This document shows, one piece after another, positions 49,900-50,184 of a stretch of 64,000 nt of DNA. Made by a program: the position numbers and the translations under genes. Under the pieces are notes generated by a model. It ran no database searches. It had not been told where the DNA came from and was given only the letters and a program-made list of their open reading frames with translations. Position 1 is the stretch's first letter, and every line of letters begins with the position of its first letter. This DNA comes from Escherichia coli (GTDB taxonomy: Bacteria; Pseudomonadota; Gammaproteobacteria; Enterobacterales; Enterobacteriaceae): the NCBI RefSeq assembly GCF_003334335.1, contig NZ_QOWQ01000011.1; one strand, written 5' to 3'.

Positions 49900-50184
49900 T
49901 TAATGGTGATGGTCGTCAATCTGGTGTTCGATAACCATCCCTTCACCTACGCTGGCAAGATGGCGAACATAAGGATGCGGGCGGTAAGCCGGAGCTGGCG
50001 AAGGAGCCACATAGACGGTTTGCGGCACAGTCGCGACGCTGACCGCTTGTGGAACGCTGACTGAATCAGGAACCACAACCACTTTGTATCCACTCGGCAC
50101 ATCGACGGTGACACTTTGCGCCATCGCCACACCAGTAAAGCCCATTAAAAGCGCGCCCAACAGTAGACAATTTTTCATAATCAT
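49900..50184 (-). CDS. ybjH: Small secreted protein of unknown function
   Basis: 94 aa; signal peptide MIMKNCLLLGALLMGFTGVAMA, Val/Pro-rich low-complexity core, C-terminal DDHHH. Confidence 0.85.
   Translation of the reverse strand: MIMKNCLLLGALLMGFTGVAMAQSVTVDVPSGYKVVVVPDSVSVPQAVSVATVPQTVYVAPSPAPAYRPHPYVRHLASVGEGMVIEHQIDDHHH

Follow-up and report, generated by a model that had tools for sequence, protein, structure and literature searches.

The open reading frame (ORF) at 49900..50184 on the minus strand of the window, the whole 64,000-nucleotide stretch of Escherichia coli DNA analysed here, is the chromosomal gene ybjH (b0843), an assignment that is close to certain. Its product is a small protein, almost certainly exported, and alignment of its orthologues locates the functional determinants in two short invariant blocks and not in the Val/Pro-rich middle. 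Metal or pH sensing appears the most plausible role because His and acidic residues are conserved; the metal-binding mechanism set out below is tentative and may well prove wrong. ybjH is a known, ordinary y-gene with no characterized function, part of the E. coli 'y-ome' and one of a small number of y-genes assigned to no family. Databases already contain both the gene and its unusual composition, and nothing in the present findings would surprise a specialist.

The coding sequence, delimited by the ORF list, annotation and pN/pS, comprises 94 codons followed by a TAA stop (49900-49902) and translates to MIMKNCLLLGALLMGFTGVAMAQSVTVDVPSGYKVVVVPDSVSVPQAVSVATVPQTVYVAPSPAPAYRPHPYVRHLASVGEGMVIEHQIDDHHH. 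In a megablast search with a 701-nt query around the ORF, the region was 99.9% identical at the DNA level to E. coli K-12 MG1655. The same query matched 5423 of 5426 complete E. coli genomes, the matched feature being annotated 'ybjH: protein YbjH'. The gene name given by a model's earlier sequence-only reading was therefore right, and both strings that it had quoted were found in the ORF, at residues 25-67 and 87-94 (HQIDDHHH). It had assigned the protein no function, and the RefSeq reference 'protein YbjH' likewise carries none. ORF positions and tblastn synteny placed ybjH as expected for its orthologue group, between the convergent mdfA (48627..49859, plus strand) and the same-strand genes ybjI (50270..51088, minus strand) and ybjJ (51085..52293, minus strand), with rcdA (plus strand, from 52347) divergent. 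It is the same gene as K-12 b0843, with the same neighbours ybjG, mdfA, ybjI, ybjJ and rcdA. The protein is one residue off the common E. coli allele, with APSPAPAY in place of the APAPAPAY seen in most E. coli. Searching full-text literature for the locus tag b0843 returned unrelated matches only, and the 'YbjH' of a Staphylococcus aureus paper evidently stands for YjbH, the Spx adaptor (PMC12518513). Plasmid and phage carriage were both rejected: the 'plasmid' matches were mostly Mb-sized, with two of 55 kb, were all typed non-mobilizable and look chromosomal, and the sole 'phage' match was a P2-like prophage record with host flanking DNA included.

Residue conservation was read from an alignment of 35 orthologues, and terminal-motif and spacer-length counts were taken from 130 distinct full-length homologues. 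Export of YbjH is close to certain. Residues 1-22 (MIMKNCLLLGALLMGFTGVAMA; 50119..50184, minus strand) have the classical n/h/c layout of a Sec-type signal peptide with predicted cleavage at A-M-A/Q, contain no lipobox, and were modelled as a helix by AlphaFold2 (AF2). Among the 35 orthologues A22 and Q23 are invariant, A20 is conserved in at least 90% and the h-region varies freely, in support of the signal peptide and secretion that had been proposed earlier.

The alignment makes a modular architecture of N-block, variable-length spacer and C-block close to certain. The N-block (residues 23-39, QSVTVDVPSGYKVVVVP; 50068..50118, minus strand) was defined by the alignment, by pN and by strands in a tandem model. 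Its consensus is Q[SN]VTVDVPSGYKVVVVP, with T26, V29, P30, G32, Y33 and P39 invariant and V25, V27, D28, K34-V36 and V38 conserved in at least 90% of the 35 orthologues. The low-confidence tandem model suggests that it probably forms a β-hairpin with a P-S-G turn. The spacer (residues 40-72; 49969..50067, minus strand) is rich in P, A, V, S and T, and PQT.Y.AP is the only piece conserved inside it in the 35 orthologues. The segment from GYKxxxxP to RH (residues 40-73 in the YbjH here) measures 22-39 residues in nearly all 130 homologues, with one 12-residue outlier.

The C-block (residues 73-94, VRHLASVGEGMVIEHQIDDHHH; 49903..49968, minus strand), delimited by alignment, pN and AF2, combines a predicted β-hairpin (75-79/83-87) with an acidic/His tail and has the consensus RH.ASV.EGM.IEHQ.DDHH. 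Sixteen of its residues are invariant in the 35 orthologues: R74, H75, A77, S78, V79, E81, G82, M83, I85 and E86, and towards the tail H87, Q88, D90, D91, H92 and H93. Including H70, which is conserved in at least 90%, five His and four acidic residues are conserved within the last 25 residues. HQ[IYF]DDHH was found at the C-terminus of 126 of the 130 homologues; just 36 of them, drawn from Escherichia and a few others, have a third terminal His. The C-terminal His cluster of the earlier reading is thus kept in orthologues as to two of its His, the third being mostly Escherichia-specific, and evolutionarily only two of the three matter. Rare natural variants replace H92 (DDYH, DDRH). That reading would have fallen had orthologues lacked a V/P-rich region and His tail; they retain both. 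The YbjH here has all three marks of its orthologue group, the AxA/Q signal end, the N-block and the C-block.

Nei-Gojobori analysis of codon alignments gave a pN/pS of ~0.03-0.1 for mature ybjH against E. albertii, Citrobacter, Lelliottia and Buttiauxella. Over the last 22 codons pN was 0 in many species pairs, with pS of 0.24-0.65 and synonymous sites near saturation, and over the N-block pN was 0-0.05 with pS up to 1.0. The middle (spacer) had a pN of 0.1-0.5, above its flanks; it is relaxed, yet not free. ybjH is a genuine protein-coding gene under strong purifying selection.

The composition of the mature chain exceeds chance. Val makes up 17 of the 72 residues (24%, against 7.4% in the window's long ORFs; binomial P = 1.4e-5), and the same comparison gave P = 0.006 for nine Pro and P = 0.004 for six His. 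The 'Val/Pro-rich repeat' reported earlier holds as to richness in V and P. As a repeat it does not, for there is no tandem array (Tandem Repeats Finder called none on ybjH) and only a degenerate V-x-V-x-(V/A)-P periodicity plus short DNA repeats. The spacer carries an 18-nt tandem duplication (50036-50071; 72% identical, encoding PDSVSV/PQAVSV) and one copy (50008-50019) of a 12-nt direct repeat, whose other copy lies 90 nt away in the N-block (50098-50109). In its small size, signal peptide and low-complexity stretches rich in P-x-P-V/A-P-V, YbjH resembles the PXPV-repeat proteins (PF12778), which are small secreted Pro/Val-rich bacterial proteins. PF12778 gave no match to the YbjH here, and among the 35 orthologues it gave one at E ≤ 0.001 and two at E ≤ 0.1. 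We know of no PXPV protein with a YbjH-type N-block and RH...EGM.IEHQ.DDHH C-block.

The YbjH family is small and, as far as the sequence searches reach, confined to some Enterobacteriaceae. Pfam, NCBIfam and PDB sequence searches with YbjH returned no relative, and PADLOC found nothing at the locus. A word-indexed search of 5.8 billion proteins gave 223 relatives, and among the 120 listed every one with a named source is from Enterobacteriaceae. Exhaustive phmmer against 1.84 billion cluster representatives gave 22 matches with YbjH, mostly fragments or frameshifted copies. Scanning 100,044 species genomes (one genome per species) with two peptide patterns located 36 ybjH loci, in Escherichia, Citrobacter, Yokenella, Lelliottia, some Enterobacter, Buttiauxella, Phytobacter and a Kosakonia; none was found in Salmonella or Klebsiella with these two patterns. 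DUF3300, the UniRef name of a Citrobacter homologue (P0069), was rejected as a family label: neither the query nor any of the 35 orthologues matched the Pfam DUF3300 model, and the precomputed Pfam column is empty for the 120 listed homologues.

AF2 modelling of YbjH with the 35-sequence alignment gave a mean pLDDT of 66.6 and a pTM of 0.22. Beyond the signal helix the only secondary structure was the C-terminal β-hairpin 75-79/83-87, and pLDDT was lowest in the spacer, falling below 50 at residues 49-55. The hairpin geometry is tentative because the models are of low confidence; the DSSP string tentatively suggests a register in which H75 lies opposite H87. In this predicted register one face (H75, A77, V79 / M83, I85, H87) is made up of invariant residues throughout, most of them hydrophobic. 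When mature chains were joined in tandem by a linker and modelled with a paired alignment, the N-block had strands at 2-7 and 11-17; a defined homodimer was rejected, as the tandem model (pLDDT 47) was worse than the monomer. The description of the protein as 'extended or disordered' agrees with these extended, low-confidence models. It does not extend to a generic low-complexity linker, since the N-block is nearly invariant across genera. This near-invariance, with the strong purifying selection on mature YbjH, points to a specific interface or to fold-on-binding.

We propose that the Sec signal peptide would deliver the mature 72-residue chain, starting at the invariant Gln23, to the periplasm, where YbjH alone would be largely extended. 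The C-block hairpin would put H75 opposite H87, beside the D90-D91-H92-H93 tail, and the resulting His/carboxylate cluster could bind a divalent transition metal (Zn, Ni or Cu) or titrate with periplasmic pH. The N-block hairpin would dock onto a partner or surface through β-strand pairing, with the proline-rich spacer acting as a semi-rigid tether. The candidate metal ligands (H70, H75, H87, H92, H93, E81, E86, D90 and D91) are all invariant or nearly so. Clustered His, Asp and Met able to chelate metal are found in the small, Sec-exported proteins ZinT (in an N-terminal His stretch), ZraP, RcnB, CusF and SilE/PcoE, and SilE/PcoE are disordered without metal. YbjH had no sequence or profile match to any of these in Pfam, NCBIfam and PDB sequence searches, and the lack of a match to any metal-binding family in those searches counts against a metal role. 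Unlike such small periplasmic metal-handling proteins, mature YbjH contains only one Met and no HxxM/MxxH repeats, and at its gene no metal-responsive operator was found. The variability of the third His and the rare replacements of H92 were also counted against metal binding. If the C-block is a metal/pH switch, YbjH would be a small added component of enterobacterial envelope homeostasis; otherwise it would be an ordinary lineage-restricted orphan.

Conserved GGCAACA and CATAAT elements upstream of the ybjJ-linked copies suggest that ybjH has its own promoter. The candidate (50221..50253, minus strand) lies in the 85-nt ybjI-ybjH spacer and pairs GGCAACA (50253-50247) with a -10-like CATAAT (50226-50221). 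The start of GGCAACA 27 nt upstream of the start of CATAAT/CATACT is conserved in Escherichia, Citrobacter, Phytobacter, Kosakonia and two further Enterobacteriaceae loci (L003/L037). A canonical sigma-70 -35 element is absent from this candidate, and a simple promoter scan made no call. In a few strains an IS1 occupies the ybjI-ybjH spacer. The E. coli leader fold was not significant (z = -1.5), and Rfam gave only a sub-threshold snoRNA match in or around ybjH. Downstream, in the 40-nt gap to mdfA, an intrinsic terminator (49858..49896, minus strand) is formed by the hairpin AAUGCCUGA...UCAGGCAUU followed by U7. Its fold of -20.4 kcal/mol (z = -5.3) was equalled by none of 200 shuffles. mdfA and ybjH are a listed convergent overlapping transcript pair (PMC12288877).

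No regulator site stood out upstream of ybjH. The best match to a Fur box was 11/19, which is background level (reached by over 400 sites in the window), and consensus strings for TorR, Zur, NikR, CusR, CpxR, PhoP and RstA gave nothing convincing in 450 nt upstream. ybjH is reported among the genes whose expression alters with TorR, alongside fec, fep, fhu and suf genes, and as co-varying with fec, fep and suf in torR backgrounds (PMC5294996). In the first 49 samples of the PRECISE RNA-seq compendium (PMC6892915), with expression columns taken in metadata order, b0843 ranged over ~1-4.7 log2 TPM and lay at ~3-4.7 in most. This is about four-fold below the upstream gene ybjI (near 6.0 log2 TPM), and expression is low under standard laboratory conditions. 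Paired log2 TPM values were 3.70 / 2.94 for the control, 3.54 / 4.27 with dipyridyl, 3.76 / 3.35 with Fe, 4.11 / 3.91 for the fur deletion with dipyridyl, 3.80 / 4.28 for the fur deletion with Fe and 3.93 / 3.55 at pH 5.5. None of these conditions, Fe included, drew a real response in these 49 samples. Direct Fur control was rejected on the lack of both a Fur box and a dipyridyl or fur-deletion response, and in K-12 ybjH stands outside the Fur and acid responses. The flat profile argues against a metal or pH role, as proteins devoted to metal homeostasis or acid usually do react to such conditions.

A possible, if rather unlikely, alternative is that YbjH works without metal, binding a partner as an adaptor or modulator. 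Both hairpin blocks would dock by β-augmentation on an envelope protein, for example the periplasmic domain of a transporter or sensor, and His and Asp would serve only recognition or pH tuning. A metal site by itself would call for far less conservation than either block shows. The predicted face of the C-hairpin is mostly hydrophobic as well as wholly invariant, the invariant N-block is amphipathic, and the low AF2 confidence of monomer and tandem dimer fits fold-on-binding. Gene order can be read for and against such an adaptor. ybjH adjoins the MFS gene ybjJ or its ybjI-containing cluster in four genera: Escherichia and Citrobacter have rcdA, then ybjJ-ybjI-ybjH, then convergent mdfA, and Phytobacter and Kosakonia lack ybjI, with ybjH directly after ybjJ and an AcrB-like RND pump gene (c7) instead of mdfA. 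At the Enterobacteriaceae loci L003/L037 convergent mdfA is kept, and at L003 ybjI is also missing and ybjH directly follows ybjJ. No neighbour is common to all genera, however. The homologue lies between yciA and yciB in Buttiauxella, at other, unrelated places in Enterobacter and Yokenella, and at a further unrelated locus in Lelliottia; no partner emerged from any analysis here. As no neighbour is conserved across all genera, YbjH probably needs no dedicated partner encoded nearby, and gene order suggests that ybjH is probably self-contained, with no obligatory neighbour or fixed genomic partner.

The Lelliottia locus bears on a different proposal, which we regard as improbable: that YbjH belongs with the intrinsically disordered periplasmic protectants of the Asr/HdeA type and answers to acid or stress, its six His becoming protonated at low pH so that the net charge flips and the protein is activated. 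In Lelliottia (L001/L002) and Enterobacteriaceae bacterium RIT714 (L024) the homologue divergently adjoins asr or the asr position; the Asr neighbour was recognised by eye from its translation in L001, and RIT714 has the same flanking genes. An RstA-box-like TGTAACCTAATGTA is present in the asr-homologue spacer, the structure prediction is extended and of low confidence, and His and Asp abound in the C-block. Like Asr, YbjH is small, exported and low in complexity. Its sequence, however, is unrelated to Asr or HdeA (Pfam and NCBIfam gave no similarity, and the Lelliottia Asr neighbour is unrelated to it), and it has strict motifs instead of Lys/Ala/His repeats. Adjacency to asr was seen in only two of ~36 species, the pH 5.5 values of b0843 in E. 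coli K-12 show no acid induction over the control, and the strict residue conservation is unlike that of typical disordered chaperones.

More improbable still is that the N-terminal two-thirds of YbjH are a remnant or half of a PapD/ASH-type Ig-like β-sandwich, the fold being completed by self-association or strand complementation to build oligomers or fibre-like assemblies in the periplasm or at the surface. The phmmer matches include giant surface proteins, Bacteroidota-like by sequence, that match YbjH through repeats of ~106 residues called by Pfam as Cep192_D4 (PF22073) and HYDIN/CFA65/VesB-like (PF22544). One of these, P0127, matched over 14 stretches at E = 3.9e-14, a value inflated by 14 near-identical repeats; P0137 is another, and the match is a post hoc pick from 1.84 billion proteins. 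The repeat pattern SNV[ST][IV].AP[ST]GYQV...QT[IV]YV.F.P..AQ.Y parallels QSVTVDVPSGYKVV...QTVYVAP.PAPAY in YbjH. Comparison of a YbjH profile with an Ig-like repeat profile by hhalign gave 83.5% probability over 53 columns (range 68-83% over 44-53 columns), with low diversity in both profiles (Neff ~1.8). Mature YbjH only scored 29.5 over 44 columns, against a mean of 9.8 (sd 2.3) and a maximum of 18.4 for 200 column-shuffled controls, and a score above all 200 shuffles suggests that the resemblance is more than composition. Unlike PapD/ASH-type domains, YbjH aligns over only about half a domain, is missed by the Pfam Ig-like models and forms no sandwich in AF2, either as monomer or as tandem dimer. 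We take β-strand-forming propensity of the N-part as a lead only and do not claim Ig-like homology; the resemblance may be convergent.

Joining this lead to metal or proton binding by the C-block, YbjH could be imagined as the founder of an undescribed class of enterobacterial periplasmic mini-proteins, in which a Pro-rich rod would tether a half-Ig-like or β-hairpin docking module to a C-terminal His/Asp hairpin that would sense a metal ion (or a proton) or deliver it to an envelope partner. We consider this composite improbable as a whole.

That the ORF is spurious or decaying, with its composition a by-product of DNA sequence, is scarcely credible in spite of low expression, many rare indel and frameshift alleles and an IS1 upstream in some strains: the selection analysis (pN/pS ~0.03-0.1 across genera, synonymous sites near saturation) excludes it, 5423 of 5426 genomes carry ybjH, and the gene was retained after relocation in other genera. 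Many rare in-frame length variants of E. coli YbjH, and frameshift alleles as well, appear in the protein database. The commonest length variant there is a 64-aa allele that arose by recombination between the two 12-nt repeats, and its 30-aa in-frame deletion removes the whole N-block and spacer. It occurs in 2 of 5426 complete E. coli genomes, and common polymorphism of the repeat region was rejected on this count. The existence of this allele suggests that the N-block and spacer are not strictly essential.

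A 12-nt direct repeat lies within ybjH (50008-50019 and 50098-50109; coding strand ACCGTCTATGTG / ACCGTCGATGTG). This repeat flanks a 90-nt in-frame deletion at a ybjH locus in another record (L042, NZ_CP054388.1), yielding a 64-aa YbjH allele without the N-block (residues 23-39, at the start of the mature protein) and the Pro/Val/Ala/Ser-rich spacer (residues 40-72). Of 5426 complete E. coli genomes, 2 have this short allele, under the label 'hypothetical protein'. In a few E. coli strains, FG92-1 among them, an IS1 insertion was seen between ybjI and ybjH (2044-2741 of NZ_OZ501671.1; in the window the corresponding spacer spans about 50185-50269). 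In these IS1-bearing strains ybjH is cut off from any ybjI read-through.

The sole 'phage' match to YbjH was the P2-like prophage record ON470620.1 (27435-38938). Its right end is host DNA carrying rcdA, ybjJ, ybjI, ybjH, mdfA, ybjG, deoR, dacC and gstB, and the integrase immediately adjoins rcdA. What the record shows is a prophage integration site next to the ybjH locus, not a ybjH carried by phage. Eight PLSDB 'plasmid' records (CP088669.1 and NZ_CP134663.1 among them) also contained ybjH. Six were 0.7-4.9 Mb and two 55 kb in size, and all eight were typed as non-mobilizable. These records look like chromosomes or chromosome fragments deposited as plasmids.

The 5' leaders of ybjH copies linked to ybjJ carry a hairpin between a -10-like element and the Shine-Dalgarno sequence. 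In one such copy (L003, about 5920-5990) this was formed by GTGGCTGAC...GTCAGCCAC, with z = -3.25, and in Citrobacter by CACTGG...CCAGTG (for example at about 3930-3990 of L009). The 3' arm of the hairpin has been lost in E. coli.

The acid-shock gene asr adjoins the ybjH homologue divergently in Lelliottia (L001, 5357-6273) and Enterobacteriaceae bacterium RIT714 (L024, 3357-4288); asr was recognised by eye in the former and assigned in the latter from flanking genes common to both. In both, the common spacer between the two genes contains an RstA-box-like TGTAAC(C/G)TAATGTA. Four Enterobacter and Lelliottia copies (L021, L022, L027 and L032) share a conserved GTAACA...TTTGGCATTTTCTGCAC block about 90-130 nt upstream of the start, and a GGCAT/GCAC..TGCACC core was found upstream of the L001 and L024 homologues as well. 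The block looks sigma-54-like, yet its GG-to-GC spacing is 8, not 10. The top Fur-box-like matches of the window (about 6585-6615 and 38239-38257; 14-15 of 19 positions to GATAATGATAATCATTATC) overlap on both strands and are distant from ybjH; they probably belong to other genes.

With the PRECISE expression columns assumed to follow metadata order, ybjH mRNA fell to 1.0/2.2 log2 TPM upon soxR deletion plus paraquat (row b0843, PMC6892915 supplement). No such fall was seen when soxS was deleted (3.46/3.29) or in paraquat-treated wild type (3.70/3.51 log2 TPM). The drop may be low-count noise.

PMC12518513 presents the 'YbjH' of S. aureus as the Spx-proteolysis adaptor, a protein whose name is YjbH. 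Text-mined annotation of E. coli ybjH could be contaminated by this mix-up. Another S. aureus paper with the name, PMC5062060, probably makes this swap too.
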